From Candidatus Saccharimonadota bacterium (GTDB taxonomy: Bacteria; Patescibacteriota; Gracilibacteria; BD1-5; UBA6164): a stretch of DNA of 32,000 nucleotides. The DNA lies in the NCBI GenBank assembly GCA_965229705.1, contig OZ245922.1, positions 840,001-872,000 on the forward strand, given 5' to 3'. Each line of letters begins with the position of its first letter. Positions within the stretch are counted from its first letter, which is position 1. The position numbers and the translations under genes are program-made. This document shows, one piece after another, positions 1-32,000 of the stretch. Below the pieces are notes generated by a model. The model worked only from the letters and a program-made list of their open reading frames with translations. It ran no database searches and was not told where the DNA came from.

Positions 1-301
1 TTTTCTACAATATGTATATGTATTTACAGTGTATCATATATTTATTAAGAGAACAAATATTTAAATATAGTAGTAGTAATAATAGTTCTTGTGAAAAACC
101 TGAGTCCCATAATAAAGCGAAAAAAATAAGACTTTTTTTCCATTTTTTCAGAGAAATATTTCTCTATATTGTGTATTTTGCAAAGGATATTAAGAGATAT
201 TATAGAGTTTTTTACAAAAGTTTTCTTCTTTCTTTGACTTGCTTTTACTTTCATAAAAGTATGATAAAAATGTGTAAGATAATTTTTAAAGTGTTTTGTA
301 T

Positions 302-1570
302 ATGCAAGAGTGAAAAAATAGAGTTTTTCTGAATTTTATCATTGTTTTGACATCTTTTTTGCTGGGATTGTGAATTTCTCATATATTCTATACACAGAAA
401 CTGGCACATAAAGATATCGAGACTCGATTTTTAGGAACTTCCTACAATCTTGATATGCAAGAGTTTTGGGATGTATATCAGCTGATATGAGATGAGTTTT
501 TTTCTCAAGATGGCGTGAAGAAACAAGACCTTGTATATGGCGCAATAGAGTGAATGGTTGCAGCTCTATGAGATGAACATAGTGAGTTTTTTTCTCCAAG
601 TGCGACAGAAAAGTTTCATACTTCGCTCTCATGAGATTTTGAGGGAATAGGAGCCGTAGTAGAGAAAGTTCCTCTTTGAGTAAAAATTGAAAGAATTTTC
701 AAAGGTTCTCCCGCAAAAAAATATGGACTCTTTTCCGGAGACATCCTGATCTCTGCAAATGGTGAGAGTCTGGTAGGCCTCGATATATTTGATGCGGTTG
801 AAAAGATCAAAGGACCTGCAGGAAGTGAGGTGATTTTAGAGATACTGAGAGTATGAGAAAGTGATATTATAGAGCGAACGGTTGTGCGGGATAAGATACA
901 TATTCCTTCGGTAGAAATAGAAGAAATATGAGAAGATGTTCTCTATATTTCTCTTAATATGTTTGGTGACTCAAGTGTGGAAGAGTTTTGAGAAGCAATT
1001 TCTTTGGCAATATCTTCACAAAAACAAGGACTTATTATTGATCTTAGAGATAATGGCTGATGATATCTCGACAGCGCTGTAAGTATTTTGTCATATTTTA
1101 TAGATACTGGAGAAGTACTGGTAGAGACAAGATATAGAAAATCTTTTCTTGGAAAGACCTATACTTCACAAAAGAATGATCAAAAATATACCGGAAAAAT
1201 AGTTGTACTCATCAATAGAAACTCTGCGAGTGCTTCTGAAATAGTTGCTTGAGCACTCAGAGAGTATCACAAGGCAATTCTTGTAGGAGAAAAAAGTTTT
1301 GGAAAAGGGTCAGTCCAAGAGGCATACAATCTCGTTTCTCAGAGTCTGTTAAAACTTACGGTTGCTCAGTGGTTCACTCCTCAAGGGAAAAACATCGAAG
1401 ATGAGGGAATACAGCCAGATATAGAAGTATTTTTTGAGTGAGAGGATTTTGAAAATGACTATGATAGACAGCTAGAGGAGGCAAAAAAAGTTCTTCGTAT
1501 GTTTCAGGTAGAAAACACTCTTTGACTTACTTTGGAGAAATATCATGAGGAGAATAGTAAAGAAGAGTAA
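302..1570 (+). CDS. S41 family carboxyl-terminal processing peptidase (Ctp/Prc-like) with N-terminal membrane anchor and PDZ region
   Basis: Read with TGA=Gly from ATG 302 to TAA 1568-1570, 422 aa. N-terminal TM NFIIVLTSFLLGLGISHIFY. PDZ-like GSPAKKYGLFSGDILISANG. S41 motifs DLRDNGGGYL (both central G are TGA), NRNSASASEIVAGAL and GEKSFGKGSVQ. In-frame TAA at 287-289 bounds the start. Confidence 0.85.
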
Positions 1571-1600
1571 TTTTTGAGGGGTAAGAAAGTTCTGAGTATG

Positions 1601-1631
1601 AACACCGGGCTGTAGCCCGGTGTTGTTTTTT
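1601..1631 (+). terminator. Rho-independent terminator after the peptidase gene
   Basis: Perfect 10-bp stem aacaccgggc/gcccggtgtt with loop tgta, followed by gttttttg. Confidence 0.8.
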
Positions 1632-1685
1632 GCGTGTTTGGAGGAAATCATAAGAAAAAAGATTCAAAATATCAGTCACAAAAAA

Positions 1686-1713
1686 TTGCATCCTTTATCT
1701 ATTCCTATACAAT
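1686..1713 (+). promoter_or_regulatory. Candidate sigma70-type promoter for glyA
   Basis: TTGCAT (1686-1691), 16-nt spacer, TACAAT (1708-1713). Would give a 5' leader of about 150 nt before the glyA ATG. Confidence 0.35.
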
Positions 1714-1867
1714 ACACGGAGTTATACATTATGGAAAAAATATGAACTACCTCTATACAACAAAGCTTGTACTCTTAGGATAATACCATACTCCCTTTCT
1801 CTATCCTGTTAGAAATACTGCTATCAGGATGGAGATTTTTTATATATTATTTTTTTATATTTTCCCT

Positions 1868-3202
1868 ATGAACTATTATAATCAATTCCAACATCTCCAA
1901 AAAACAGACCCCGAACTCTTCTGACTCATACAACAAGAAACCGAGAGGCAAGAAAGCTCTCTCGAACTCATACCCAGCGAATGCGTTGCGAGTCTCGCAA
2001 CCATAGAATGTTTATGAAGTCCTTTTACCAATAAGTACTCTGAATGATACGCAGGAAAGAGATACTATGGAGGAAACGATGTAGTAGATAAGGTTGAAAC
2101 TCTTGCTATTGAAAGAGCAAAAAAACTTTTTGGAGTTGCGTATGTCAATGTGCAACCCTATTCTGGAAGTCCCGCAAATTTTGCAGTATATAATGCTCTA
2201 TGTCAAGCGTGAGATACTACCATGTGACTCTCTCTTACTCAGTGAGGACACCTCACACATGGCTGGAACGCATCGGCAACGGGAAAGTTCTTTACTCCCG
2301 TTTTATATGGACTCAATGAGGAAGGATATATCGATATGGATGAGGTAGAAAAACTTGCGAAAGAACATCAACCAAAACTTATTTGGTGTGGAACAACAGC
2401 GTATTCACGAGAAGTAGATTTTGAGAGATTTGGAAAAATAGCTGACAGTATCGGAGCATATCTCGTAGCAGATATATCACATATTTCATGACTTGTTGCC
2501 GCGAGAGCTCATAAGAGTCCTGTCGATTATGTACATCTCATCACTACTACCACACATAAAACTCTGAGAGGACCACGAGGAGGAATGATCATGACCACAC
2601 AAAAAGGAATAGATAAAAATCCTGATCTCGCAAAAATGATAGATAAGTCTGTCTTTCCTGGACTTCAGGGCTGACCACACAATCACCAGACCCTCGCTAT
2701 TGCCTGTGCTCTTGGAGAAGCACTTAAACCGGCGTTTTGAGAAATGGCTCATCAAATTGTAAAAAATGCAAAAACTCTTGCAGCAGAACTTCTTTCCTAT
2801 GGTTACGAGTTGGCAGCTGGAGGAACTGACAATCATCTTATATTGATGTCTGTGGGGAAAGGGCGTGGTCAGTTTGCTCAGGATGCCCTTGATATTGCTG
2901 GTATTACCCTCAACAAAAACACTATTCCCAATGAACCATGTTCTCCATTTTTTCCATCAGGGATTCGCATGGGAACACCTATTATGACGATGAGGGGAAT
3001 GAAAGAAGATGATATGAAGCAGGTAGCTTCATGGATGAAAAGAGTCTTTGATGAGATTATTGGTTTTGATCATCTTGAAGACAAAGAATCTCGAAAACAG
3101 CAAAAAGCAGAGTTTCAAGAATTTATCAAAAACAATGATGAGTTGAAAAAAATACGATGAGAAATAGGAGAATTTTGTAAGAATTTTCCTATTTATTCGT
3201 AG
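1868..3202 (+). CDS. glyA: Serine hydroxymethyltransferase
   Basis: 444 aa with TGA=Gly, ends TAG 3200-3202. Motifs [25 protein letters not shown] (G=TGA), [24 protein letters not shown] (PLP lysine), FPGLQGGPHNH. The track shows only fragments 2094..2348 and 2744..3160. Confidence 0.95.
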
Positions 3203-3256
3203 GATTTTTTTCAATATACGAATACTTCCAAAATATATTTCTCGTCTTCACAGCTA

Positions 3257-4330
3257 ATGGAATTATGGACATACATACTTAGCTTTGCTCTTTCACTTAT
3301 ACTCTCGTATACTATGGTACAAGCTCTTTCATGTCTATTTCATCACTATAACATAGTAGACAATCCAGAAAAGTACAAAAAAAAGAGACCCCCCATTCCA
3401 TATAGTATGGGAATCGTATTTATTTTGTGTTTTCTTCCTTTAAGTTATTTTTTTGTTGATTTTTCCTATAAACTCTTTTTATTATGGGTATTTTGAATCA
3501 TTATTAGTCTTGTGAGTTTTGGAGATGATATGCTCGGTCTATCCCCTAAAATACGTCTCTGTATTCAAGTACTTATAGGGCTTACTATAGGACTGACTTC
3601 TATAAAAATTGGTTATGTAAGCAATATATTTGGGGGCATTATCGATTTGGATACATGGGCCTTTAATATTTTAGGAAAGGATATTTTTCTTATACCTGTT
3701 TTTTTTACGGTTGCCTGGTATGTTTTTGTATTTAATGCGCTGAATTGGTCAGATGGAATAGGAGGAAACACCTCGGGATTATCACTTATTTGCTTTCTCG
3801 TTATTTTTCTCCTTGGACTTAAACTGTATCTGACAGATGATCAGTCCGCTCTCAAAAATAATGCTGAATTTATCATGCAAATATCCCTTATTCTTGCTGG
3901 AATACTTATTCCTTTTTTCTTCTTTGATTATAAAGAAAAGATCCTTATGTGAGACTCGGGGACAATGTTTCTTGCGTTTATGTTGGCAAGTTTAGCCATC
4001 ATTTCCTGAGGAAAAATAGCAACAGTATTAGCAGTCTTTGGGATATATGCGGTTGATGCGGTATATGTGATTGTGAGGAGAATTATCAGGTGAGACAATC
4101 CTATGAAAGGAGATTTTACACATTTTCATCATCGTCTACAGGAAATAGGGTTTTCTCATTTACATATCTTGATGCTGATATTTTTTCTTTCATTTTTCTT
4201 TGGAGTATCTTCACTATTTTTAGAGAAAGGAGGAAAAATAATAGTATTGTGCATTATTGCTATATGTGTCGTATCTCTCTCACATTTTGGGAAATATATA
4301 GCATCCTACAAAAACCCAAGAGATATATAA
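3257..4330 (+). CDS. Glycosyltransferase family 4 polyprenyl-phosphate sugar-1-phosphate transferase (WecA/MraY family)
   Basis: 357 aa polytopic membrane protein. Track fragments 3257, 3512 and 4103 are all in the same frame and joined by TGA. Motifs NALNWSDGIGG (NxxNxxDGxDG), MGDSGTMFLAF, HFHHRL. Confidence 0.8.
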
Positions 4331-4351
4331 ATATATTGTTTACATTGTTAT

Positions 4352-5323: not shown

Positions 5324-5326
5324 AAT

Positions 5327-5628: not shown

Positions 5629-6390
5629 ATGCTCAATATCGCCATAAATACCTTTAAAGAAATTGCGAGAAACAGGCTCCTCTACCTCATAGTATTTTTT
5701 GCCTTTGTATTTATCATATTTTCCCTTATTCTCGGACAATTCACGATAGCAGAATCAGAGAAGATCATTGTCGACTTTGGGCTCGCTATGATAGAAACAT
5801 TTGGTATCATCTCTGTACTCTTTGTTGGAAGTCAGCTCCTATTTAAAGAAATAGAGGGAAAAACTATTTTTCTGATCCTCTCAAAACCTATAGCGCGCTC
5901 AGAATTTATTATGTGAAAATTTCTCGGTTTTTCGGCTATCATTGCCAGCATTATTTTCCTACAATCACTTGTATATATAACTATGCTCTTTGCCTCATCT
6001 GTTGAGATATCCGCAATAATCGTATGGGCATTACTCTTTACCTTCCTCAAACTCCAAATACTTCTCGGAATCGTATTTTTATTTTCCACCTTTATGAGTC
6101 ATATACTCACGATTGTTTGCTGAATGATGATATACTTTATCAGCCACAGCTACAGTTTGATACTCGATATATTTTGAAGAATGGAAAATGTATCTGCTCT
6201 TGTAAGTGCAAAAGTTTTACACATATTCTTCCCTCCACTCGAAGCCATGAATATCAAGAACTTCATTTGAAGCACTCTTTCTCTTGAAATATCATATTTT
6301 TTGAGCAATATGCTCCATGGATGACTCTATATTGCGTGTTTGATGACATGCACCATCATCATATTTTCTCGTAAAATGTTTGAAGAATAA
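5629..6390 (+). CDS. ABC-2 type transporter permease (NosY-like family); no cognate ATPase gene adjacent
   Basis: 253 aa with about 6 hydrophobic helices. N-terminus MLNIAINTFKEIARNRLLYLIVFF is typical of ABC-2 permeases. Joined across 5 TGA codons, ends TAA 6388-6390. Confidence 0.65.
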
Positions 6391-6438: not shown

Positions 6439-7302
6439 ATGAAAAAGCAGGAATACATAGACTTTGGACTTCATTTTTGACTGAGTCCTGACACTATAGA
6501 AAGGACACTGTGTAAGATTTTTGGTATGACTCCGGAAGATTTTTTTTGTAAAAAAGAGTTTTCCAGTATGCATATATATGAAACGGCAAAAATGTTTTTT
6601 TCACTGAAAAATGGAAAACCAGAATCATATTTGCTTCAAAGTGCAGAGTTTTATGGTCATACATTTCATATACATGATACCGTTCTCATTCCGAGAAATG
6701 ATACAGAAGTTTTAGTAAAAGTATGCCTGGAAACACTTTTGAAAAAAGGAGATACAAAAAATACTTTTTATGTTGATGTATGAACCGGAAGTGCTTGTAT
6801 TGCTATTAGTGTGATAAAAGAGTTAGAGCCTTTGAGATTTACATGATCTTACGCTCTTGATATCTCAGATTCTGCTTTGGAAATCGCAAGAAAAAATATT
6901 GAAAGTCACGAGATTGAGTCATTACACCTACAAAAAAGCAATCTCCTTGAATCACTCTATAACGAAACAGATATACAAGGAAAAAAGCTCTGCATTACTG
7001 CAAATCTCCCATATATCAAAGAAGGAGATTATGAAAACATGGACCAAAGCGTCAGAGACCATGAACCAGATATTGCTCTGTATGGAGGAGCTGAAACAGG
7101 TTTTGAGCTCTATCAAAAACTGATTAAACAGTGTTTTCAGATACAGCAGATTCATGCATTGGAGAGTATCGATCTTTTTATAGAAATAGGTTTTGACCAA
7201 AAAGAATATTCTGAAAAATACCTGCAAGAACTCGGACTCTCGTTTACATATTTTCCTGATAATGCTGGAAAATCAAGGGTTATATATATTTATGGATTTT
7301 AA
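6439..7302 (+). CDS. prmC: Release factor glutamine N5-methyltransferase (HemK/PrmC)
   Basis: 287 aa. FYGHTFHIHDTVLIPRNDTE, SAM-binding VDVGTGSACIAIS (first G=TGA), catalytic NLPY (NPPY variant), EPDIALYGG. Confidence 0.85.
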
Positions 7303-7319: not shown

Positions 7320-8009
7320 ATGAGTATAGAATCCTACATTCCTGATGAGTCGGCTGAGTCGTGAAGTAATTCGGCAGAGATATCAGAAAAATACAAGCAA
7401 GCAGCCAAGAAGGCACGATCTGGTATTCGGCGAACACAAAAAGATGAAAAAAAGGCAAAAAAATATGATTTTCTCTTGGCAAAGTTTTTGGTAGAGATGA
7501 TTCTTAAGAAAAAATATGATGAGCTTTTAGATGAGCTTTTTTCTTGCTTAGACGCTGGATATGGAACAAATTTTTTGTTGTGAATTTTGTCGCTCATTTA
7601 TCTGCCTATCAGCCAAGAAATTCGTCAGCATGCAGGCAAGAAGGAGCTCGAGTTTTCTTATCAACCTTCTCAAGAAATGCTTCCTTTTGATGACCACCAT
7701 CTTCCAGGAGAAGTGCGTGATAGGGTAAATGCGTGGATAGAAGATATGGAAATAGTGACACATATGGAGGCCTCAACAGAGATCACGCGGCGAACTCTGA
7801 GTCTTATTTTGTATGATGAAAAAATACGTGAGTTTACCGCAAAAGTTTTTTCGTTTTTCTTTCGAGAGATTCGTATACATATCTCTGCCTCAAAGTCTCG
7901 AAGTTATAGTGACTTTATCCTCGAAGAACTTCAAAAAAAGACCAAAAAACTTTTGCCTCTAATAGAAGCAGAGCTAGAGGAAAGTGTGGATGATAGTTCT
8001 GAAAAGTAA
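7320..8009 (+). CDS. Hypothetical protein
   Basis: 229 aa from ATG 7320 to TAA. Extends track ORF 7587..8009 upstream through two TGA codons in the same frame. No family recognised. Confidence 0.5.
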
Positions 8010-10450: not shown

Positions 10451-11692
10451 ATGGTTATAGAAAAAATATTACAAGAACCCCTTCGAGAGAGAAACGCATA
10501 TTTAGATCGTATACAAAGCTATATTTGAAGTCCTTTGATAAAAGTACTCATTGGGCAAAGACGTGTTGGAAAGAGTAGTATCATCAAATCCCTGATACAA
10601 AATTTTGTGAAATCATGAATACCAAAAGAAAATATTTTTTATATCAATAAAGAATTGTCACACTTTGATTTCATTGAGAACTACGACGATTTGAAACAGT
10701 CTTTTTTTCATTTCTTGGATACGGGAATACAAGGAAAAATTATTATTGCCATCGATGAGATTCAAGAAATTCAATGATGGGAAAAGTTTATCAACGGAAC
10801 TCTTGCAGAGTATGGTACGCAGGCTGAGATATTTATTACAGGAAGTAATAGTTTTCTTGTATCAGGAGACTTGGCAACATACCTTACTGGAAGATATATA
10901 GAGTTTCCTATATTTCCATTGTCTTTCACAGAATTTTGTGACTTTAAAAATATTATCCCTTCAAAAAATGAATTTTATGAGTATCTCCAATATGGTGGTC
11001 TTCCTGCCATTTTTACCATGCATTACTCGCAAGAAGTAATTTTTCCATATTTATATGGAGTATATAATACGATTGTTATGAAGGATATACTGCAATATCG
11101 AGAGATACGCAATATTGATTTTTTTCAAAATTTGTACAAATATACTCTTGCAAATATTTGATCTCTTGTGAGTGCTAGCAGTATCCAAAAATACCTTCGT
11201 TCACAGCAGATAAAAATAGGAAATGACACGATATTAAATTTTTTATATTACGCATGTGAAGCCTTTGTTCTCTATAAGGTATGATCTGTAAATCCAAATA
11301 CCAAAAAATCTTTTGAAATATACAACAAATACTATGTTGGAGATCTATGACTTCGAAATGCATTAGTCGGATATGATTTCTCAAGGGATATTTGAAAACT
11401 CCTTGAAAATTACGTTTTTCTTGAACTGAAGAGGCAGGGGTATGATATTCAGATATGAAGATTAGATGGAGAGAGAGAGGTAGATTTTATTGCTTCAAAG
11501 CAATGAATAATAAAATATTTTCAGGTTGCCTATACCTTGAACGGGGAAGAAACTCTTCACAGAGAGTATGCTTCTTTGCAAGATATTTGAGATAATTGGG
11601 AGAAATATATTATCAGTATGGATGAACATAATATTTCCGAACATGAAGGAATAAAACACATAAATATCTTAGAACTAGAAAGTATTCTATAA
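10451..11692 (+). CDS. AAA-family ATPase with DUF4143-like C-terminal domain (AAA_14/DUF4143 type)
   Basis: 413 aa. Walker A GQRRVGKSS, Walker B IIIAIDEIQEIQ. The C-terminal half resembles the restriction-endonuclease-like DUF4143 fold (EVDFIA...). About 9 in-frame TGA codons. Ends TAA 11690-11692. Confidence 0.7.
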
Positions 11693-11923: not shown

Positions 11924-13462
11924 ATGCATATTTCAATGATTATAATGTGAGTCATATTTGGTATGTCTCTCTCTGTCGTGATATTTTTCCTCTGGGAAAA
12001 TAGAAAAACCAGTCTTGCCGAGTCACGATCTGAAAAAATTGTCTCAAAGGCAGAAAAAAAACGTGAACACATGCTTTCTGATGCGCGAAAAGAGTCAGAA
12101 GAAATGATTCACGAAGCAAAAAATGAGGCACGGAGCATCATGCAAAAAGCTCAAAATACCGAGGACCGCGTTGCAAAAACAGAAGCGCGAGTAATAGAAC
12201 GAGAAGAAAAAATAGAACAAAAACTTGACCATATCAGCGCAAAGCAAGACGAGCTTGTTCTCGAAGAAGAAAAAATAAAAAAATCTCAAGAACTCCTCGA
12301 GAAAAAAACAAAAGAACTTGATGGAAAACTCTGAGAAATAGCAAAACTTTCAAAAGAGCAGGCTCGTGAACTTTTTCTAGCACAGATTGCTAATCAGTAT
12401 GAAGATGAGGCAAAAAACCTCATTGAAAAGCATAAAAAAAAGATAGAAAAACAAAAAACAGAAGCTGCCAGAGAAATACTTCTCAAGTCTATTCAACAAT
12501 ACGCAGGTGATGTCACCAGTGAAGTAACAACAACTCTTATTGAAATTCCGAGTGATGATATAAAGGGAAAACTCATCGGAAAAGAAGGAAGAAATATCAC
12601 TACTTTTGAGCGATACGCTGGAGTTTCTCTTATCATAGACGATACTCCTGATACAGTTTTCATTTCTGCTTTTGATCTCTATAGAAGATATATTGCAAAA
12701 AAATCTCTTGAGAAACTTATAGAAGATGGTCGTATCCAGCCTGCTCGTATTGAAGAAGTGATTGAGGCGACCCAAGCAGAGGGAGAAATACTCCTCAGAG
12801 AACTTTGAGGAAAAGTCATCGAAGAGCTGAACCTGCACAATATCCCTGATGAAATAGTTCCTATTATTGGTCGTCTACGCTTTCGAACGAGTTACGGACA
12901 AAATATGCTCAAGCATTCAAAAGAAGTAGCCATTATTGCTGAAGCAATAGCGCGGGAACTCTGAGTTGATCAAAAACTTGTACGTATGTGAGGATTACTC
13001 CATGATATAGGGAAGGCGCTTGATCACGATATTGAAGGAACTCATCCAGAAATATGAGCAAAAATATGACGAAAGTATGGTCTTCCTGAAGAAGTCATAG
13101 ATATGATAGAAAACCACCACGGAGAACAATTTAGTATTTCTATTTATGCCGCAATAGTACAAGTGGCTGATGCTATTAGTTCAGTACGCCCATGAGCGCG
13201 AAGAGAAGCAATAGAACAATACCTCAAGCGTGTTCAAGAGATAGAAGCTCTTGTACAAAGTTTTGCAGGAGTAGAAAAAGCCTATGCCCTCTCTGCTGGT
13301 CGAGAAGTACGCGTCTTTGTCAATGCAGAAACACTTTCAGATATAGATGCTCAGAAAACAGCAAGTGAAATAGCAGGAAATATAGAAGCAAATCTCCAAT
13401 ATCCATGAGAAGTCAAAGTCTCGGTAATTCGTGAAACAAGAGTCGTCGAATATGCAAAATAA
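11924..13462 (+). CDS. rny: Ribonuclease Y
   Basis: 512 aa. N-terminal TM, long coiled coil, KH motif KGKLIGKEGRNI, HD domain LLHDIGKA...ENHHGE, RPGARRE and YPGEVKV (G=TGA). Confidence 0.92.
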
Positions 13463-13509: not shown

Positions 13510-14067
13510 ATGTATAATGGGAATGATCTCAAAGTAGGAAAAAAATTTGTTATGGATGATATGCCATTTGAAGTTGTCTCTTACGCACAAAAAGTGATGG
13601 GACGATGAGGAAGTATCATTAATATCAAGGCAAAGAATCTTCTCAATGGAGGAACTATTGCAAAAACACTCTCAGATACTGATAAATTTCCTCCCGCAGA
13701 TATTGCCACAAAGAGTTATGACTATCTCTACAATGATGGAGAGAATTATTTTTTTATGTCTCAAGAGAGCTATGAGCAAGTCGAGCTCCCAAAATCAGCT
13801 CTTGATGGAGCTGAACTTTTTCTCAATGATGGAGATAAGGTGATGCTCCAGGAGTTTAATGGAAATCCTATTAACGTGAGTCTCGAACCGAGTTGTACTC
13901 TCGAAGTACAAGATACTCCTCCTGGTGAAAAATGAGATACCGCAACATGAGGAAAAAAACCAGCAACACTCTCTACAGGACTCGTAGTACAAGTTCCGCT
14001 CTTTATCAATGCTGGAGACTGTATCAAAATAGATACGCGAACAAAAGAATATATCTCAAGAGCATAA
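13510..14067 (+). CDS. efp: Translation elongation factor P
   Basis: 185 aa. [56 protein letters not shown] (loop glycines are TGA). Ends TAA 14065-14067. Confidence 0.9.
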
Positions 14068-14143: not shown

Positions 14144-14938
14144 GTGTTTCCATTTATAGAAATAGGTTCATTATGAGTACAGGTTTATAGCTTTGGCGTA
14201 ACTTTGGCACTCTGTTTTTTCTTATTTTTATGGAATCTCGAAAGGCTCTCTCAGAGATTCGGTTATAGTTTTTCCTTCTTTTCGGGAAATATTTTTTTCT
14301 TATTTTTTTCTACATTTTTCTTCTCTCGACTTTTCTATATTATTTCAAAGTGGAGTGATATGAGATTTATTAAAAATCCTTTTGAGTTTTTTTTCATGGG
14401 AGATTTTCATCTGTCTCTTTTTTGAGCAATTTTTGGTTTTCTTCTTATGTTATCACTTCTTGCCTATAGAGAAAAATCGAGCATGGTGCGTTATATAGAC
14501 GGTGTAGTGCTTTCATTTTTTTTAGTGCTGGTCTTTTGATACATCGGAGCATTTTTGTGATGACAGGTCTATGGAAGAGAAACACTTTTTGGTATAGAAA
14601 TAATGTATACACACCCTTATAGTCCTGTACCATTTCAGGTACCTATATTTCCTCTGGCTATTGTCTACGCCATAATGAGCTTTATGGTTTTGAGTATATT
14701 ATATATCCTCTCGCTTTTTATCAGAGTAAAGGGCTTTATATGATATTTTTGACTTATAGCACTGAGCGCTATGATTTTGATATTTGAGTTTTTTAGTGGT
14801 AAGCAGGATATTCTTTCATTGATGACATTTTTTAATGTTCCGCAATTTTGTGCTCTGATACTCTGTCTGTGGAGCTTTTACCAACTTTCCCTTCTTTTTC
14901 AAAGAGATAGTGGAGAGGTGTTTCATCATATAGATTAA
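14144..14938 (+). CDS. lgt: Prolipoprotein diacylglyceryl transferase
   Basis: Polytopic membrane protein. FGYIGAFLGGQVYGRE matches the Lgt GRIGNFxNGExxGR box (three G are TGA). The frame opens at 14114 with no in-frame ATG, so GTG 14144 is proposed and the start is uncertain. TAA 14936-14938 lies 2 nt before comEC. Confidence 0.65.
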
Positions 14939-21338: not shown

Positions 21339-21686
21339 ATGCTAGAGCGACTCTCGAAGAGAAGAAAAGAAATATTGAAAATCAAAAATACTTGTGAAAA
21401 AAATTTTCAAGAAGCACTCTGTATAGCTTTTTATATAGCTGAGAGTATACAGACGAGTACTATCACTACGCAGGAGTATATACTCCTACATAAGTGATAT
21501 AAACAAGACTATAGGGATATAAATATTCCTCTTGATGATCTCTCAAATTTTCAGTTTCAAAAGCTCATAAATGACTATGAAGTCTCACAAGATATTCGAG
21601 GGTTTTTTCCTTATATGAGGCGTAACTTTCATAGATATTTTTTAGATCAGGCTGAGCATGCTATAATACTCAAATTTCAAGAGTAA
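21339..21686 (+). CDS. Small hypothetical protein (115 aa)
   Basis: Visible only under TGA=Gly (one internal TGA), so it is absent from the supplied track. Runs ATG 21339 to TAA 21684-21686. No family recognised. Confidence 0.4.
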
Positions 21687-21781: not shown

Positions 21782-22882
21782 ATGCAAGAGATGTATAGCG
21801 TCCTATGATACAAAAATAATCCTCTTCTGGATACCTATCGAGAAAAACAAATAGTAACACTTCAACAAAAACTCTGAGAAGTAGTGTGAGATACAGGTCT
21901 TTTACAGCAGTTTTCCAAGCTCTGAGAAGATATACAAAGAGATTTTCTCACACATCCAGATCAGTCATCTATACTTTTGAGTGACAGTTTTATAGAGAAG
22001 AGAGAACTCCACAGAAGTAGGCTGATATGAGAAATGCGCAAACTCATTTCGTGAGATGAAAAAGCGCTCATCATGAACTCTGGATATCTCATAAGCGGAA
22101 CAAATATACGCCTCAGCGTTGATGATCACAATCCGTGTAACTCCTACGATGCACATCCTGATAGTTCTTGAGATGAGAGTGGATGAAAACTCTGATGGTG
22201 ATCACAAAGTCCCGAAGAGTGGAAGAAAGTCTATGACAACACCTTTCATATTCTCAGACAAGCAGATGAGTGATGTTTTTTCGAGCTATGTTCCATGATA
22301 CAAAAGATAGTTCCTTTTGGAACAGCAAAAAATATTCATTACTCAGCATCATACAAAGAATGTATCGGGACGCTCTATATGGGGTTTACTCTTGATACAG
22401 ATATCCCTGAACTTCATGTACTTGAGGGACTCATTCACGAATCAAGTCATAACAAACTCAACCTCATTATGCAATATGAAGATATAACACTTAATGATTT
22501 TCAGGAAAAATATTATTCTCCATACAGACCAGATGCAAGGCATATATATGGTGTGTTTCTGGGAATACATGCACTTATACCGACCGTATATGTCTTACTG
22601 AAAGCTATAGAAAAAGGACTTATTAGTGATAAAAGATGGCAAGAGAAGATCATTATGTATCACATCAAAAATAAGCTCTGAATTGCGACAATAAAAAAGT
22701 TTGGGATACTCTCCCCTATGTGACAACGAGTATTTTCAGAGCTGATTTCGGTAGCACAAGTGTCAGATATCCTTGCAAAAGACTGCATCAAAAAATATTC
22801 TCTTCCCTTGTGAGATATTCAAAAAAGGGTAAAAGAACATTTTTCACAGGTGAGTCAAAACTATCCTCACATGATATATTAA
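21782..22882 (+). CDS. HExxH-motif domain protein (peptide-modification / aKG-HExxH hydroxylase-like family)
   Basis: 366 aa with at least 14 in-frame TGA codons. The track shows only 22295..22681. Core IVPFGTAKNIHYSASYKECIGTLYMGF...LEGLIHESSHNKLNLIM...YYSPYRPDARHIYGVFLGIHALIPTVYVL matches, from memory, the HEXXH-motif domain family seen with RiPP maturases. Ends TAA 22880-22882. Confidence 0.6.
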
Positions 22883-22976: not shown

Positions 22977-23501
22977 CTACTTTTCTTCTTGTTTTCGAGT
23001 TTCTGCAGAAGTTTCTACAGATGTCTCTTCTGCTACAGGAGGTGTTACTTCTGGAGCTTGTTCTGGAGTATCTGCGACTTCTTGTTTTTTTACTTCAGGA
23101 TACTCTATAACAGGAAGAGCTTTTTCAGCGTTGAGAGTTTGCTTATCCATGCGCACTTCTTTGAGTCGAGCAGCTTTACCAGTGAGATCACGGATAAATT
23201 TGATAGATTTTCTTCTGACTTTAAACTGGCGAAGGACCTCTATTTTTTCAATAGTACTTGAGTGTACAGCAAATATTTTTTCTACACCAAACGCTCCTAT
23301 TTTTCTTCGAACGGTGATAGTTTTTTCTAACTCAGATTTCCCCGCTGTTTTGATGATAATTCCTTTAAATCTTTGTATTCTTTCTTTATTTCCTTCTGTG
23401 ATTTTTTGATACACTTCGACTTCCATTCCTGTTTTGAGGTCAGGTCGACCAGATTGCAAAAACTCATTTTGAGCTTTTCTGACGATATCTACATTTGTCA
23501 T
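22977..23501 (-). CDS. rplS: 50S ribosomal protein L19 with an acidic/proline-rich C-terminal extension
   Basis: 174 aa with no internal TGA. L19 core RPDLKTGMEVEVYQKITEGNKERIQRFKGIIIK...VRRKIGAFGVEKIFAVHS...RAKLYYLR-like FKVRRKSIKFIRDL. The tail of about 55 aa reads EYPEVKKQEVADTPEQAPEVTPPVAEETSVETSAETRKQEEK. Confidence 0.9.
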   Translation of the reverse strand: MTNVDIVRKAQNEFLQSGRPDLKTGMEVEVYQKITEGNKERIQRFKGIIIKTAGKSELEKTITVRRKIGAFGVEKIFAVHSSTIEKIEVLRQFKVRRKSIKFIRDLTGKAARLKEVRMDKQTLNAEKALPVIEYPEVKKQEVADTPEQAPEVTPPVAEETSVETSAETRKQEEK

Positions 23502-23917: not shown

Positions 23918-25702
23918 ATGAAAGATCACAAAATCATCACACTCCCCGTAGAACTCAGTAACCAAATAGCAGCAGGAGAAGTAGTTGAACGACCTCTTTC
24001 GGTGGTAAAAGAACTTTTGGAAAACGCTCTTGATGCAGAAGCTCATCATATAGAGATCGAGGTAGAAAATGGTGGGATTGATCTGATACGCGTAAAAGAT
24101 AATGGAGTTGGTATTCCAAAAGAAGAAATACCCAAAGCGCTCTTAAAGTATTCTACATCCAAGATATCCTCTCTCGAAGACCTTTATCGCGTCATGACTT
24201 TTGGTTTTCGAGGAGAGGCTCTTGCGAGTATTAGCTCTGTAAGCGAGTTTTCTCTCTGCTCAAAAACGCAGTGAGAGACAGCAGGAACTATAGTGCAAAC
24301 AAGCTCAGGTCATCAAGAAATATCAGAAACAGCGCACAATGTAGGAACCAGCGTAGTAGTCAAAAACCTCTTTTATAACACTCCTGCGCGCAAAGCCTAT
24401 CTCAAGACTCCCCGAACAGAATACCAAAAGATAGCTGATTTTGTTCAAAAAACAGCTCTGTGTTTTCCTCATATATCTTTTCAGCTCAGACATGATGGAA
24501 AAAATACTTTTTCTTACCCAAAAGCTAGCTCTCTCAAAGAAAGAATTCGCAGTATATATGACAGAGAGTATGCCGAGAGTATGCTCGATATTCACTATGA
24601 GTTTGCGTGAATAACTCTTAGAGGGTACATTAGTGATCCAAAAATATTTTATACCAATAAACAAAAACAGGTACTATTTGTGAACAATCGTTATATACAT
24701 TCCCCTATGATATCCAAGGCTATTATAGATGCATATAATAGATTTATTCCTCCTGGGAAATACCCTGGCTATGTGCTCTTTCTCGATATTGACCCTACAC
24801 AGATAGATGCAAATGTGCATCCAAGAAAAATGGAGATTCGCTTTGCGGCAGAACAACAAATATATAGAGCCTTTTATCACGCACTGAAAGACCGACTCGA
24901 AAAAGTGAGTCTTTCTTCATCATTTCATACTGAAACTACCATACAGGATACTTCCCTTTGAGAGAAAATTTCTCATAAAAAAAATACTCCTCTCAAGTAT
25001 CATACCGGTTCGGGGACACGCTTTAAAAACTATTCTCCATACACCAATACACTTCCTCATCCTACCCAGAATGCAATAGAATTTACAAAAAATATTCTTC
25101 AAGATTCGAAAAGTTCCGAAGCAATTTTCCCAAAGAATCCAAAAATAGGAAGAGTCCTCTGACAGCTGCATCACTCTTATATCGTGGTAGAAACAGATAC
25201 AGGACTCAAAATACTCGACCAGCATGCACTGGCAGAAAGAGTTATCTATGAAAAACTCTCACATTCGTCCTATACACCAAATACGCAAAAACTTCTCTTT
25301 CCTACAGAAGTTCATCTCGAAGGCGCTGAGCAAGAACAGTTAGAGCAATATAGTGATATGTTTGTCTCTATGTGATTTCAGATACACTGGCAGTGAGATA
25401 TCTTGGAAGTAACAGAAATTCCTGACTTTGTTTCAAAAAATAATATAGAGCAACTGATAAAAAATATTCTGTGAGATATGACGAGCGTGGGATCAAAGTC
25501 TCTGGAAGAAATTCGACATAAGATGTGGGCATATACTGCCTGCCGAAGTGCGATCAAGTTTGGTGATCCTCTCACACATTTTGAGATGGAAAAACTTTTA
25601 GAAGATGCGAGTATACATTATTCTTCTACTTGTCCTCATGGCAGACCAGTAGTGTATGAAGTCAGTCTTGATGAGCTAGCGAAAAAGTATGAAAGAGAGT
25701 AA
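23918..25702 (+). CDS. mutL: DNA mismatch repair protein MutL
   Basis: 594 aa. GHKL ATPase motifs [42 protein letters not shown]-terminal [11 protein letters not shown]...[16 protein letters not shown] (G=TGA), [18 protein letters not shown]. Confidence 0.93.
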
Positions 25703-25710: not shown

Positions 25711-26103
25711 CTATCTATATATCCATGGAGCTATAGCATTGAGAATTACTCATGAAAGCATAAGTATTACCAGTCCTATGAGCGTTTTGGTAATTCTGTC
25801 CTTGGCGCTTGTTTTCAGACCATCATTTAGCCCAGCCATAGAATACAATATTCCGTTTATTACAATAAATAGCACACAGGCAAGAGATGTAATATAGGTA
25901 AAATACTTTATCACTTCTCCAGCTACGAGCATCACGCTCTCAAATCCTGGTTGTATATTACAGGTATAGATACCCTTACTATCAGGCTCCTCATAACAAT
26001 TTGCTCCAGGGATAGGCTCGGTTACCTGTACCTCTACTGCTCATACCTGAAATGCAAAACAGAGGCAAAGACAATATACAGAGAAAAGAAGAATATTTTT
26101 CAT
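25711..26103 (-). CDS. T4SS-type pilin (TrbC/VirB2-like, CPR/Gram-positive T4SS pilin family), single module
   Basis: 130 aa. Signal peptide MKNILLFSVYCLCLCFAFQ, TM1 YITSLACVLFIVINGILY, loop SMAGLNDGLKTSAKDRITKT, TM2 LIGLVILMLSGVILNAIAPWI. Starts 16 nt after the upstream gene stop. Ends TAG 25711-25713. Confidence 0.65.
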
Positions 26104-27024: not shown

Positions 27025-27190
27025 AGTTTGGAAAATATTTTGAAATATTTGTCTCATTATAGCATAACTTTTCTCAATACACGAAAGGATACAAAAAAAA
27101 CCTGAAAATAAAAATTGACATATAAAAATAAAAATATATACATCCTTTCAAACAAAAACACAACAACTCAAAAATGAAAGGGACTCAAGA

Positions 27191-27490
27191 ATGGGGATTA
27201 TTTTGATTCTAGTAGGAGGAGCGATAGGATTTTTTATCCTAGGATTTGCGCTAGCGTATATAGGATATAATTTTTTTTCGAAAGCTTCTATAGGGCTTTC
27301 AGCTATTGCAAGCGTAATTTCGTTTGCGATGAGTTTATATTTTCTTCCTTATGAAAATAAGGAGTCACCCGGTTATGAAACCTTTCCATCATATAATGAT
27401 AATGGTGGTTACTACAACCATCAGGGAAATGGTTATTACCATTTGGGTAGACACCGCTATATGATAGTGGGACCGTATATCAAAGAGTAA
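27191..27490 (+). CDS. Small membrane protein with Tyr/Gly/Asn-rich tail, hypothetical
   Basis: 99 aa with two TM helices, then PGYETFPSYNDNGGYYNHQGNGYYHLGRHRY. Has its own promoter-like TTGACA-16 nt-TATACA (27114-27141) and a terminator. Lies opposite to the surrounding pilin genes. Confidence 0.5.
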   Translation: MGIILILVGGAIGFFILGFALAYIGYNFFSKASIGLSAIASVISFAMSLYFLPYENKESPGYETFPSYNDNGGYYNHQGNGYYHLGRHRYMIVGPYIKE

Positions 27491-27528
27491 TTACATTAAT
27501 TATCTTTTTGATACACTCAACATAGGAA

Positions 27529-27550
27529 GGGGCCTTTAGGTCCCTTTTTT
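27529..27550 (+). terminator. Rho-independent terminator of the 27191-27490 gene
   Basis: ggggcc-ttta-ggtccc (one G-U) followed by T6. The T run overlaps the stop codon of the convergent minus-strand gene. Confidence 0.6.
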
Positions 27551-28538
27551 ATATCACTCCTTCAGGACGCAAGAAAAATGTGAGTATGAGATAGTTGAGA
27601 GCCAGGATTACCAGTCATACAGCAATATAGATAATAGACTGTTTTCACTTTTTGATTTTTTCCTCGTCTCCACCAGAGAGTAGTATCTGAGACCCTGCAT
27701 ACATGATCATCAACAGCACTACAAGAGCCACAAAACCATTAAACCAATTTATTAACATTATTACGATATTGATTCATTCTGATACATCAGCCTGATTGAC
27801 ACATTTTCCTCCATCAACCACAATAAACCCGTTTCCGTAATCTTCACAGTTTATCTTTCCATAAAATGCTTCTACCACCTCTTGCGCAAAACGCACGATA
27901 AGAAAACCTATCAGTGCATAAACAATAGAATTCTTAGAGTTTTTGATAGCTTCCTCATTTCCATTTGCAGTAACAAGAGTATAAAAGGCAAAGACCGCAA
28001 TCGCGATAAAGAAAAGAGATACCAGCGTTTGCAAGAGAGCTATCAAGGGCATCACAATATAATCCATAAATCCAACAGCGGTATACGCTGAAACCCCCTT
28101 ATCATATCATACCGTGACAAAGGCGTAGGCAACCTGCATAATGATGAGTCATACACTGATCCATATGATCCCTTTTTTAAAGTTTCCTAGCTCTTCTTCG
28201 CTATTGTTTGAAAAAATAAGCTTGAGAGTAATAATCAAAAAATACACACTCGCAATCATATAAAATAGATTTTTTATATCTCGAGCAAGTCGGATAAGCG
28301 TATTATAGAGTCATTCTCATCATCATTTACTTACACTGATAAATTGATCATTTTCATCAAAGTCCTTGAGCTTATCATTTTTTCGAGCACTACTCGATTC
28401 ACTCCCATCAACACTTCCGATAGAAAGATTATTTGCCTGAGAAAACAGACGATTATCAGCGCTTGCTTCTCAGACAAAAGAAACATATACCAACATCGTG
28501 CATATGACAAACAAAAGAGTGATAAGTATTTTTTTCAT
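27549..28538 (-). CDS. Membrane protein made of three tandem T4SS-pilin-like modules (signal peptide plus 3x [TM-acidic loop-TM])
   Basis: 329 aa, checked codon by codon from ATG 28538 to TAA 27549-27551. Signal MKKILITLLFVICTMLVYVSFVGEASA. Loops are LIFSNNSEEELGNFKKGIIWISVGLII, TLVTANGNEEAIKNSKNSIVYALIGFLIV and QILLSGGDEEKIKKGKQSIIYIAVGLVIL. A Cys pair lies in the second inter-module loop. Confidence 0.65.
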
Positions 28539-28611
28539 AGGTATTATATCTCTAAACATATATACTGAGTATAACATAAGGTGTTTTTATAAGCGAGTAT
28601 TGAGAATTGAC

Positions 28612-31437
28612 TTATGATTTTTCATCTTCACTCATAATTCCAAGTCGCGCTTCTATCTCTATATCGACATATTTTTTCTTTCGTCCATATTTTTTTCGTG
28701 AGTACTCTTTGATGATAGCAGCTGCCTTTGGATTTTTATAGGTATTGTCCCAAATAGTCTTGAGATCAAACGGTCGAGTAGTAGCGTTGTCTATATTGAG
28801 CTTACAGTAGGTAGTGAAGTTGGCAATTCCTATGATGTCCTGCTGAGAAAGCAGAGGAGCGTATTCTTTTTCCATATACTCAGCATCATCAGCACCAACC
28901 TTAAAAGATTGTATGGTTCCAGCATTTCCAAATACGGCATCTTTGATAGAGGGCTTATCCCCTGTTCGTGCACCATTTCCTCAGATTTGCGCAATAAACT
29001 GATGAGCCATGATCAGAGCCAGTCGATATTTTCGGGCTTCTGAGAGTATTTCTCCAAAAGTTTCTGTGGCAAAGTTTTGGAACTCATCTACATAGAGATA
29101 AAAATCTTTACGCTCAGACTCATCAATATCAGCTCGACTCATAGCTGCCATATTGATTTTTGATACAAATATCAGACCAAGGAGCTGAGCATTGAGAGCC
29201 CCTATTTTTCCTTTTGAGAGATTTACGAGCAGGATTTTTCGGTTATCCATGACTTCGCGAAGATTAAAAGCAGATTTTGGTTGACCGATAATGTTACGAA
29301 TCGTTGAATTGGTGATAAATGGTCAAAATTTTGCAGAAAAGTAGGGAATCATTTCTTGTTTTTCTCTATCACCCGTATTGGCATATTCATGGTCCCAAAA
29401 GGACTTAACGACAGGATTTTTGAGATTACGAGTTTTGTATTTCATAAACGCTTCATCAACGAAGAGTCGTGGAACATCGATGAGTGTTCCTCCATCTTCT
29501 TCATCTTCCATAAGTGTCAAACATCCGTTACGAAAGTAGTGTTGTATACGAGGTCCAAATATTTCATCACCAAATATTTTGATAAATATTTCTGTTGCAT
29601 CAAGCGCGGCTCTATCCATTTCTCTTTTGCGAATTTCAGGATCAGAAGAGATGATATCGAGCATGTTCATTCCCATAGGTCTTTCGGTATCAGAAGGATC
29701 AAAGATGATAACATCTTTTGCTCTTTCTTTTGGGACAAAGTCGAGCACATCTTCGACGAGGTCTCCGTGTGGGTCGATAACGCAGAGTCCATCACCATTC
29801 CAAACATCTTGCCGTGCAAGGTATCCGATGTAGACAGATTTTCCTCATCCAGATTTTCCAATGATATATTGGTGTCTCCCTCTATCTTTTCGTGAGAAGT
29901 ATATTGGTGTTTTTTTATTGCGGTACTCATTCCATCCAAGAAGTACTCCATCTTTGTAGACAGGAAACCCTCAGAGGTGTCGATGAACAAGCTCAGTTTT
30001 TCCAGTTTTTTCATTTTTTTCTTCGAGCATTGTTGCCTGCGACGGAGATTTGAGATTGTGAGGAACAGGGAGTTTTTTGTACTCGAGCCAGCTGATAATA
30101 GGAGACTTATTATAGTTAATATCTGGCAGATGATAGAGCGTTGATGCTTCATCAGCTGAAAAAATAGATATATTTTGAAAAAATCCTACGAGTTTATGGC
30201 GAAAGGCAAAATGTCGACAAGGAGTAAATATCCATGGCATAGAGTCTTCGTATATTTGAGGATTATCAAGAGCATTGTTGTACTCATCAGTAAAGATACT
30301 TGCAGCTGCTACAACAGCATGGACAGCATTTTCAGATTGCTTATGAGTTTGAGATGAAACAATAATACGAATAGAGCTCTCAAAAGATGGCTGAGCAGCG
30401 GACTCTCCCATGATTTTATGAGCTTCTGTCTCTGCCTGATTAAATATTTTATACGCGTCTCACTCACTGGCTCATGGAGCGTTGTTTCATCAGACCATAT
30501 CTTCGGGCCCTTCTATCATCGCAACAATAGGATTCCACAGAAAACTCAGAGGCTTAAAAAATACTCATAAAAGTCACATTTTTCGTCATTTTTTATATTT
30601 TCCTTTTGCGACTTGTCGAGCAGCGCGAAGAGCTTTTTTATTCCATCAAGAGTTAGTGGGTTTTATCACAACTTGGTATACGGCTTTATCTGCTTTATCG
30701 AGTCCTCCAAAAACATTGGTAAAGTTATTGATAGGATCATCTTCGAGGTACTTAAATGCTTTTATCGGAAATACATCGTCATGCTCTTTTCAGAGAGATG
30801 CTGCTCGCATATGATAGCCTTTTTGTGCAAGATTGATATAGTCTACTTTATCAACTTTTTCAATTTCGGCATCATTATAGATAGAGGTAATATGTTGAGA
30901 GACAAGATTGACATAGTTTTCGTAGGTAACAATAAAAAAACTTACTTCGCCATTTTCATATACGAGCTCGAGGGCGATTTTTGAGTGTCCAAAGAAAAAG
31001 TTGAGGAGTGTGTCACGCAGTCCTGCCTCGGAGAGTTTATGGATCGCTTTGTAAAACATCGACATTTGTCAGATCTTTTCCTTAAAATCTTTTTTTGTTT
31101 CTTTTTCTTTATCGAGTTTTGAGTCTGCTCTCGGAACAGTGATCTTGAGGTAACGGAGATTTTTAGAGTACCAGAGCTCAAAACCAAGTCTGATAGACTT
31201 GTAGAGTATGAAGAGTAGCAGAGCCCAAAACAGGAGCTGCAGGATGAGATATCCTACCTCATTCATCAGACCTCAAAAATCCATGGAAAAGAGTCAGTCT
31301 CACCCCTCAGAACTGTCTGCTTGTTTTGGTTCACTACTGCCCACTTGTTGCTCGATACTTCGACCAAGAGCAGCCTGAGCTTTGGTGTATCATATACAAA
31401 ATAGAGCGATACAAATGGCAAAATACTTCAATTTCAT
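28612..31437 (-). CDS. VirD4/TraG/TraD-like type IV coupling-protein-family P-loop ATPase with two N-terminal TM segments and a large uncharacterised N-terminal domain
   Basis: 941 aa single frame joining track ORFs 31069, 30790, 29971, 29323, 28981 and 28612, with no TAA or TAG between them. Signal/TM1 MKLKYFAICIALFCIGYTKAQA, TM2 YLILQLLFWALLLFILY. Walker A IIGKSGGGKS (a G is TGA), VIDPHGDL, Walker B FYLYVDEFQNF, TraG-D_C-like RKYRLALIMAHQFIAQI...FGNAGTIQSFKVG. Confidence 0.75.
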
Positions 31438-31505: not shown

Positions 31506-31533
31506 TTGACGAAGAAGGGGAAAATAATATAGT
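31506..31533 (+). promoter_or_regulatory. Candidate promoter of a short plus-strand transcript
   Basis: TTGACG (31506-31511), 16-nt spacer, TATAGT (31528-31533). Confidence 0.3.
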
Positions 31534-31539
31534 ATCTAT

Positions 31540-31646
31540 AAAATATATTTTTAAGTGAAAATCTATATAAGTCACTTAAGGAGACTCTGAAAAATAGAAA
31601 AATCATCTTCTCCAAAATCTCTCAAGTACTCGAGAGAGTTTTTTTA
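31540..31646 (+). ncRNA. Candidate small RNA (about 105 nt) carrying 29-nt box copy B
   Basis: Predicted start after the 31528 -10 element. Hairpin ttaagtga(31551-58)/tcacttaa(31572-79), the 29-nt box at 31576-31604, then terminator tctctc-aagtactc-gagaga plus gttttttt (31618-31646). No ATG-initiated ORF. Confidence 0.3.
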
Positions 31647-31662
31647 TTGTAAAAATAGGTTT

Positions 31663-31692
31663 TTGTATACAATGTAAACATTAGTGTATAAT
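31663..31692 (+). promoter_or_regulatory. Candidate promoter/operator of the toxin-antitoxin pair
   Basis: TTGTAT (31663-31668), 18-nt spacer, TATAAT (31687-31692). The -35 lies inside the palindrome TTGTATACAA. The -10 ends 10 nt before ATG 31703, which implies a near-leaderless mRNA. Confidence 0.4.
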
Positions 31693-31702
31693 TTTTAATG
31701 AA

Positions 31703-31945
31703 ATGAACCCAGCAAAAGACACCGTTGTATCTTTTCGTATTCCTGCAGAAAAAAAGCAATTTCTTACAAAAATAGCAAAAGAGTATAAAAGAACCCCAGC
31801 TTCACTTATGCAGCAAGGACTGGACTATGTATTTGAAAATTATGAGATGGAAAACTCTATAACTCTTGCGAAAAGAGTAGAAGAATCACGAAAAAGTAAG
31901 ACTATTCCTGCTCAGCAAGTATATGAAGAACTCGGGTTGTTATAG
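31703..31945 (+). CDS. Type II antitoxin, ribbon-helix-helix type (RelB/DinJ/ParD-like)
   Basis: 80 aa. N-terminal VSFRIPAEKKQFLTKIAKEYKRTPASLMQQGL fits a beta-strand plus two helices RHH fold. Its stop lies 2 nt before the next ATG. Confidence 0.6.
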   Translation: MNPAKDTVVSFRIPAEKKQFLTKIAKEYKRTPASLMQQGLDYVFENYEMENSITLAKRVEESRKSKTIPAQQVYEELGLL

Positions 31946-31947
31946 CG

Positions 31948-32000
31948 ATGTGGAAATTGCAGTATACAGATAAGTCAAAAGACGATTTTAGGAGAATTGA
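31948..32000 (+). CDS. Probable RelE/ParE-family toxin, 5' fragment truncated by the window edge
   Basis: MWKLQYTDKSKDDFRRI resembles RelE/ParE N-termini (xYxIxFTxxAxKDLKKL) and is tightly coupled to the antitoxin. Only 17 codons are visible. Confidence 0.45.
   Translation, partial: MWKLQYTDKSKDDFRRI

Follow-up and report, generated by a model that had tools for sequence, protein, structure and literature searches.

The stretch of DNA analysed here (32 kb, GC 36.6%; "the window" means this stretch in its full length) is almost certainly chromosomal DNA of a BD1-5/'Candidatus Gracilibacteria' bacterium (Candidate Phyla Radiation (CPR)/Patescibacteria) which, as judged from comparison with related genes, uses genetic code 25 and reads UGA as glycine. 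Glycine had already been proposed for UGA by a model that saw only the letters and a list of open reading frames (ORFs), in the following termed the sequence-only reading. Residues in orthologue columns, codon exchange within the clade, amino acid composition and gene calling all point to glycine as well.

In a greedy, non-overlapping set of ORFs, the standard code (table 11) yields 67 ORFs that cover 63% of the window, have a median length of 89 amino acids (aa) and never reach 300 aa, the longest having 234 aa. When TGA is counted as sense, 32 ORFs cover 95% of the window, the median is 320 aa and 17 ORFs have at least 300 aa. Re-calling with alternative codes, a check suggested by the sequence-only reading, thus identifies TGA as sense, and the standard-code ORF track is indeed wrong here, as had been stated (median 89 aa versus a true 320 aa). 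Control recoding of the window with TAG or TAA as sense brings no gain (longest ORF 266 and 255 aa, respectively). When the long ORFs were translated with TGA as X for profile searches, matches to Pfam and NCBIfam families crossed the TGAs at full length, covering positions 1-399 of 399 for serine hydroxymethyltransferase (SHMT), 2-444 of 445 for Amidase and all domains of elongation factor G (EF-G).

A curated set comprises 26 genes with 9263 codons, besides at most four small doubtful ORFs; the 28 genes counted earlier are not reached by the solid models. TGA occurs in frame 179 times in this set next to 490 GGN codons and makes up about 27% of the glycine codons of the window. The statement that every recognisable gene is interrupted holds for 24 of the 26 genes but not for ribosomal protein L19, when read from its likely start, and not for a RelB-like ORF. 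The 26 genes end with TAA (19) or TAG (7) and none with TGA. This had also been claimed and is correct, but partly circular once TGA is taken as sense; independent support for termination at TAA and TAG only comes from the conserved genes, which end at C-termini and lengths that match those of their orthologues.

Under table 11, every large gene of the window looks broken, and this could be taken to mean that UGA is still a stop and that the genes are pseudogenes, suffer from assembly or sequencing errors, or employ selenocysteine or programmed readthrough. We regard this explanation as so improbable that it is practically negligible. The genes are interrupted by TGA only, while TAA and TAG, both common in the off frames, do not occur a single time in frame. 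A close strain, assembled independently, keeps 41 TGAs in position. Conserved glycine and not cysteine or selenocysteine lies under the TGAs, and 179 sites in 24 genes, including the essential EF-G, elongation factor P (EF-P), GatA and methionyl-tRNA formyltransferase (Fmt), are too many for recoding signals. The TGAs are spread uniformly along the genes (Kolmogorov-Smirnov p = 0.27) and are therefore not leaky terminal stops. Selenocysteine, readthrough and pseudogenes are thus rejected because nothing but TGA interrupts and because the TGAs are conserved and evenly spread.

The amino acid assigned to UGA is indicated by alignment. Seven conserved proteins encoded in the window were aligned to solved structures from standard-code organisms in the PDB, and the residue opposite each TGA was tallied; EF-P was read from its own alignment, apart from the tally of the first 53 positions. 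Glycine is found opposite TGA at 33 of 56 positions and tryptophan at none, with a reference background of 7.8% glycine. At the first 53 aligned positions the enrichment of glycine has p = 7e-20. The single proteins contribute as follows.
SHMT: glycine opposite TGA at 7 of 9 positions
GatA: 7 of 11
Fmt: 6 of 8
S41 peptidase: 6 of 12
EF-G: 2 of 6
MutL: 2 of 7
EF-P: 3 of 3
For EF-G, SHMT, GatA and MutL this tabulation had been suggested beforehand; tryptophan is absent from all four. The residue profile at TGA (G 56%, A 11%, S 6%) resembles that of the GGN glycines of the window (G 71%, A 8%), and TGG codons mostly face tryptophan in the structure alignments. When 80 EF-G genes of various GTDB species are compared, the six columns with TGA hold G80; G79/S1; G54/S/A/T; A53/G17/S10; A65/S15; and D/E/G/N, without any tryptophan in these 80 sequences. 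The first two columns belong to the TGAs at 9567 and 9825 (glycine in 80/80 and 79/80 orthologues, respectively).

The competing assignment, tryptophan as in table 4, has some points in its favor. Tables 4 and 25 raise coding density to the same extent, a public protein catalogue wrote W at all six TGAs of EF-G, and within the Patescibacteriota UGA as tryptophan has been predicted for some Minisyncoccia, such that this phylum is reported to hold tables 4, 11 and 25 (gTranslate preprint). The alignments just described nevertheless already refute table 4 at the level of sequence, and we consider tryptophan extremely improbable. Composition points in the same direction: glycine amounts to 5.2% with GGN alone and to a normal 7.1% with TGA included, whereas tryptophan, 0.72% with TGG alone, would rise to an abnormal 2.65% if TGA were counted in.

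Exchange within the lineage also argues for glycine. We compared the window's EF-G with 120 relatives (78-99% identity), these being the matches listed in the public catalogue; all named ones among them are from 'Candidatus Gracilibacteria bacterium'. In these table-4 translations, 50 columns contain a mixture of W and G, and no column contains W mixed with any other residue. The three genuine TGG columns of EF-G show W in 120 of the 120 relatives. A tryptophan that swaps with glycine only, and does so at glycine sites of other bacteria, is the signature of UGA read as glycine. The best match, catalogue entry P0001, stems from a 1,006,762-bp contig (NCBI and ENA) and is identical to the EF-G of the window save that each of the six TGAs, including two at invariant glycines, is given as W; the catalogue pipeline must therefore have used table 4. 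The same cause underlies the 3 to 34 W per EF-G in the catalogue relatives. Hence, the public catalogue mistranslates this genome by setting tryptophan for UGA glycines, as checked in the EF-G entry (6/6). Applied to the window as a whole, table 4 would put tryptophan at 179 glycine positions.

At the DNA level, the window was compared with a syntenic contig of the strain mentioned above (L081; ENA ERZ25074195), which is 94-99% identical. Besides the 41 TGAs in common, four TGA/GGA and one GGG/TGA differences were found. A TGA/TGG difference was not seen between the window and L081 even though a single transition would suffice, and this again stands against tryptophan. A more distant Gracilibacteria metagenome-assembled genome (MAG), L001, has TGA at residue 545 of the window's EF-G (VGGV motif), where the window has GGN. 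In 'Ca. Gracilibacteria' MAG SO_2016_GW1 bin 4, the gene for EF-G (10001-12064) is free of in-frame TGA, fitting the report that the NCBI label 'Gracilibacteria' also spans table-11 lineages.

The arginine codons help to define the exact code. Absconditabacteria read not only UGA in a deviating manner but also CGA and CGG as tryptophan, and some Gracilibacteria may read CGG as tryptophan (Shulgina and Eddy 2021, PMC8629427). In the window CGA occurs 93 times per 10,000 codons and corresponds to arginine in four of four conserved EF-G columns. CGG is present at 10.6 per 10,000 (10 codons), and the three that can be aligned (EF-G R95, Fmt R228 and S41 R196) fall on conserved arginines. An Absconditabacteria-type change of CGA and CGG to tryptophan was therefore rejected since both align to arginine, the sample for CGG being small with three informative sites. 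Arginine at CGA and CGG fits Gracilibacteria and not Absconditabacteria. Of the "Gracilibacteria/Absconditabacteria-type" genome announced by the sequence-only reading, the first part is thus backed by the EF-G relatives while the additional codon change of the second is absent. All in all, there is very little doubt that the code corresponds to NCBI table 25 with UGA predicted as glycine, UAA and UAG as the sole stops, UGG as tryptophan and CGA/CGG as arginine.

The genes and ORFs of the window are given below with coordinates, strand, product, number of in-frame TGAs and the basis of assignment.
302..1570, plus strand: S41 C-terminal processing peptidase; 15 TGA; Pfam PF03572, positions 1-165 of 165
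1868..3202, plus strand: serine hydroxymethyltransferase; 10 TGA; Pfam SHMT, 1-399 of 399
3257..4330, plus strand: glycosyltransferase family 4 (MraY/WecA-like); 4 TGA; Pfam PF00953
4352..5323, plus strand: methionyl-tRNA formyltransferase (Fmt); 9 TGA; Pfam
5629..6390, plus strand: ABC-2 type membrane protein; 5 TGA; Pfam PF12679; start taken from the L081 orthologue
6439..7302, plus strand: HemK/PrmC-family release-factor glutamine methyltransferase; 3 TGA; TIGR00536, 138.6 bits (cut-off 115.5)
7320..8009, plus strand: hypothetical 229-aa protein; 2 TGA; conserved in L081
8196..10334, plus strand: elongation factor G; 6 TGA (8340, 8520, 8763, 9477, 9567, 9825); Pfam, alignments
10451..11692, plus strand: AAA_14/DUF4143 ATPase; 10 TGA; Pfam
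11924..13462, plus strand: RNase Y; 9 TGA; Pfam RNase_Y_N, KH, HD
13510..14067, plus strand: elongation factor P; 3 TGA (13606, 13933, 13948), all on invariant glycines; TIGR00038, 200 bits; PDB alignments
14360..14938, plus strand: Lgt-like prolipoprotein diacylglyceryl transferase; 6 TGA, with TGA-TGA at 14558-14563; Pfam LGT, 70-235 of 240
14941..16431, plus strand: ComEC-like competence protein; 9 TGA; Pfam PF03772, DUF4131
16454..17455, minus strand: hypothetical 333-aa protein; 9 TGA; table-11 fragments of at most 93 aa
17851..19308, minus strand: fusion of type IV pilin N-terminus and Fib_succ_major (FISUMP); 10 TGA; Pfam PF07963, PF09603
19467..20924, minus strand: GatA amidotransferase subunit; 11 TGA; Pfam Amidase; PDB alignments
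21339..21686, plus strand: hypothetical 115-aa ORF; 1 TGA
21782..22882, plus strand: aKG-HExxH-type peptide hydroxylase family protein; TIGR04267, 58.9 bits (cut-off 40)
22977..23501, minus strand: ribosomal protein L19; 0 TGA from likely start; Pfam PF01245 at residues 56-165 of the long model
23918..25702, plus strand: MutL; 7 TGA; Pfam; PDB alignments
25711..26103, minus strand: type IV secretion system (T4SS) pilin (VirB2/TrbC-like); 2 TGA; Pfam PF18895
26119..27057, minus strand: three-repeat T4SS-pilin protein; 5 TGA; Pfam; jackhmmer domains 70-131, 175-226, 254-307
27549..28577, minus strand: three-repeat T4SS-pilin protein; 10 TGA; Pfam
28612..31437, minus strand: VirD4/TraG-like T4SS coupling ATPase, 941 aa; 18 TGA; Pfam PF02534
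31703..31945, plus strand: RelB-like antitoxin ORF; 0 TGA; NF048017, 24.5 bits, below cut-off (weak match)

Many TGAs in these genes sit at sites where orthologues have glycine. In SHMT, seven are located on invariant glycines (2015, 2045, 2210, 2225, 2243, 2489, 2672), among them the one at 2045-2047 that had been put forward as a motif example. Six of those in Fmt fall on conserved glycines (4370, 4466, 4703, 4736, 4751, 4790), and the two Fmt motifs named earlier are found exactly as described, FF-TGA-TPEF at 4370-4372 and PRYR-TGA-A at 4703-4705. The same is true for the EF-G motifs GM-TGA-ELHL (9567-9569) and IV-TGA-GVIP (9825-9827). GatA has seven TGAs on glycines of the Pseudomonas aeruginosa protein, for example at 20448 and 20433; the proposed TDTG-TGA-SIRQPA is present (20433-20435), but the glycine preceding TDTG, given as an ordinary one, is encoded by TGA as well (20448-20450). 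RP-TGA-ARRE of RNase Y was recovered in the sequence at 13193-13195, this site being outside the structure tally. For the S41 peptidase, the motif DLRDN-GG-GYL needs correction to DLRDNG-TGA-TGA-YL; the tandem TGA at 1058-1063 faces the GG of CtpB RGNPGGYL in the PDB alignment. Two further examples do not carry the weight assigned to them. In MutL, the position preceding QLHHSYIV (25160-25162) varies, with glycine in Bacillus subtilis, alanine in Neisseria gonorrhoeae and threonine in Escherichia coli, and the TGA in the Walker A motif of the coupling ATPase (29845-29847) occupies a variable x of GxxxxGK[ST] and is evidence neither way.

Several proteins had been said to be visible only after recoding. 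This applies to the C-terminal FISUMP domain (PF09603) of the pilin fusion, the half of the gene that contains nine of its ten TGAs, and to both triple-pilin proteins, each of which has three VirB2-like repeats. It also applies to the 333-aa protein encoded at 16454..17455. An ORF of this length would not stay clear of TAA and TAG by chance, and Pfam and NCBIfam searches gave no family match for it. The 115-aa ORF at 21339, in contrast, gained no homology support in the family searches and stays an unsupported hypothetical. The share of TGA among glycine codons is low in translation genes (L19 0%, EF-G 10%, EF-P 18%) and high in hypothetical proteins (43-54%); it is highest in the window, with 14 of 26 glycine codons, in the gene at 21782-22882. 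Lowest use in translation genes and highest use in hypotheticals is consistent with a single minor tRNA decoding UGA.

Two gene models call for comment. A 143-codon ORF at 13556-13987, which was picked by longest-ORF calling, is spurious; EF-P is encoded there in an overlapping other frame and was missed by naive calling because its frame extends upstream, without a stop, into RNase Y. The Lgt model from ATG 14360 lacks profile positions 1-69. It is preceded by 82 in-frame sense codons (14114-14359), and in a six-frame view this stretch resembles an Lgt N-terminus (PFIEIGSLxVQVYSFG). The start codon of Lgt is thus probably not ATG and lies somewhere in 14114-14359.

As to the decoding machinery, members of the clade are expected to possess a tRNA-Gly(UCA), and tRNA(UCA) with a glycine identity set has been scored by the authors of Codetta (PMC8629427). 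Of the BD1-5 genomes available, none yielded a prfB gene, whereas prfA is present (PMC6851277). In proteomics of a BD1-5 bacterium, unique peptides numbered 97 with a UGA-Gly database, 3 with UGA-Trp and 0 with UGA-stop (Hanke et al. 2014, PMC4032931). By analogy with the clade, UGA would be read by a dedicated tRNA-Gly with the anticodon UCA and the identity set G1:C72, C2:G71, G3:C70, U73, and termination at UGA would have been lost together with the gene for release factor RF2 (prfB). tRNA scans of eight CPR loci around EF-G did not reveal a tRNA(UCA). As an independent check, metagenome contigs were scanned for the anticodon UCA combined with C70-G71-C72-U73. From 120 stretches put to ARAGORN, nine tRNA genes (74-79 nt) that combine the anticodon UCA with the glycine identity set were confirmed; most matches of the pattern were due to chance. 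They reside at the following places.
L163, 13691-13764: tRNA(UCA)
L186, 418-491: tRNA(UCA)
L171, 2721-2799: tRNA(UCA)
L092, L109, L123, L140, L157 and L161: one tRNA(UCA) each
All nine begin with GCG, a feature not imposed by the search pattern. The contigs have a GC content of 24-38%, and in eight of the nine, recoding TGA as sense lifts ORF coverage from 0.20-0.59 to 0.51-0.89. Two classes can be distinguished: one of 74 nt without encoded CCA on SR1/Absconditabacterales-type contigs (L163, L186), and one of 79 nt with encoded CCA and a common CTAAGGCTTCAACCCTTGG anticodon arm on the Gracilibacteria-like L171 and three contigs of very low GC. A helicase encoded on L171 contains 12 TGAs and is closest to Gracilibacteria-named proteins among the matches listed. 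Assignment of one of the tRNAs to the organism studied here was rejected, L163 being of the SR1 type and L171, though similar to Gracilibacteria, not closely related to the source genome.

Several points weigh against glycine or make the case for it less direct. Within the 32-kb window, a tRNA scan and profile searches revealed neither tRNA nor release-factor genes, and an Rfam search of it had no match; the decoding mechanism outlined above is therefore drawn from the clade. The contigs with tRNA(UCA) have no genes in common with the window, and the 120 matches listed for the L163 query, like those for the L171 query, do not include the contig from which the window stems. For this particular organism, the meaning of UGA is deduced from sequence comparison only. 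Finally, 23 of the 56 aligned TGAs are opposite residues other than glycine (A, S, N, K, Q and others). This scatter is that of GGN glycines at variable positions, and single sites are not proof.

Another reading is that UGA is ambiguous, being read mainly as glycine but with context-dependent termination or appreciable misreading as tryptophan or other residues. In the highest-stringency peptides, 40 glycines were found at UGA along with one each of Trp, Ala, Asp and Lys (Hanke et al., PMC4032931), and an anticodon with U34 could in principle read UGG too (PMC8629427). In addition, the S41 peptidase gene has its final TGA (1523-1525) beyond the end of detectable homology. However, no gene needs TGA as a stop: TAA or TAG closes all 26, in the conserved genes at orthologue length, and TGA is used at catalytically invariant glycines, where ambiguous reading would be costly. 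A dual meaning of UGA is thus very unlikely. There is a slim chance that UGA decoding in this BD1-5 sublineage departs from that of the clade, either by being ambiguous or context-dependent or by operating without a dedicated tRNA-Gly(UCA).

Some further features of the window deserve mention. Compared with it, L081 carries additional genes at 1836-2531, 4613-6605 and 9429-9713 (window 3203-3256, 5324-5628 and 8010-8195), namely a 231-aa ORF after SHMT, a CopG-like gene plus DDE-transposase block after Fmt, and an ORF with a TM2 domain before EF-G. The switch from the plus strand (302-16431) to the minus strand (16454-20981) coincides with a peak of the cumulative GC skew (~16430-16455), which could indicate a replication terminus or mere gene strand bias. 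The 366-aa protein encoded at 21782-22882 has an HESSH motif and matches the aKG-HExxH-type peptide beta-hydroxylase family once TGA is taken as glycine. A T4SS-like cluster on the minus strand (25711-31437) comprises the VirD4/TraG-like ATPase and three T4SS-pilin genes, two of them with three repeats each. The pilin gene at 27549..28577 reads AAA TGA TGA TGA GAA TGA CTC, with TGA TGA TGA GAA TGA at 28311-28325. On the opposite strand within this cluster lies a candidate ORF for a membrane-like protein of 99 aa (27191-27490, plus strand), for which an exact look-up found no record. Its 14 glycine codons are all GGN; the lack of TGA among them has a chance of about 1% at a TGA share of 27%.

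The window brings no new principle, code 25 having been described in 2013 and its proteomic validation dating from 2014. Its practical value lies in annotation. Standard-code ORF tracks fail on it, and translation with table 4 in the catalogue corrupts clade-wide alignments, structure predictions and family profiles; that the catalogue sets tryptophan for the UGA glycines of this genome (EF-G entry, 6/6) is a useful by-product. With tables 4, 11 and 25 reported from one phylum, a decision between glycine and tryptophan is therefore needed per genome, and here sequence comparison decides unambiguously for glycine.

Table 4, with UGA as tryptophan, is used by Mycoplasmatales, Hodgkinia, Zinderia and others, including some insect endosymbionts. 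These systems resemble the window in the capture of the stop UGA as a sense codon, in small low-GC genomes and in the expected loss of RF2, but the amino acid is tryptophan there and glycine here. The extended code of the Absconditabacteria (SR1), a sister lineage, likewise has UGA as glycine. It differs with regard to CGA, which is found at fewer than 37 per 10,000 codons in SR1 as opposed to 93 in the window, where it stands for arginine.

By protein similarity, the organism belongs to BD1-5/Absconditabacterales (GTDB class JAEDAM01; NCBI Ca. Gracilibacteria/Absconditabacteria) and appears to fall among the Gracilibacteria-labelled genomes. Nothing on record exceeds 91% identity to its EF-G, the catalogue entry of the organism itself and one nearly identical strain excepted. 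'Candidatus Gracilibacteria bacterium 28_42_T64', a closed BD1-5 genome (Sieber et al. 2019, PMC6851277), also uses code 25. It has about 1.3 Mb versus 1.0 Mb for the apparent source contig of the window and a lower GC content (28.9% versus 36.6%), and its EF-G (P0047) is 82% identical to the one described here. Judging by this identity, the two organisms would represent different genera at least. Table 25, the code of Candidate Division SR1 and Gracilibacteria, reportedly goes back to work by Campbell et al. and Rinke et al. in 2013. It has UGA as sense codon for glycine, UAA and UAG as stops and UGG as tryptophan, just as found in the window, which also agrees with the lineage in its low GC content (36.6%) and its CPR-type character with pilins, ComEC and T4SS-like genes. 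We see no difference in kind; the window is a textbook case of table 25 in a member of the very lineage that gave rise to this table, already known and from a public genome.

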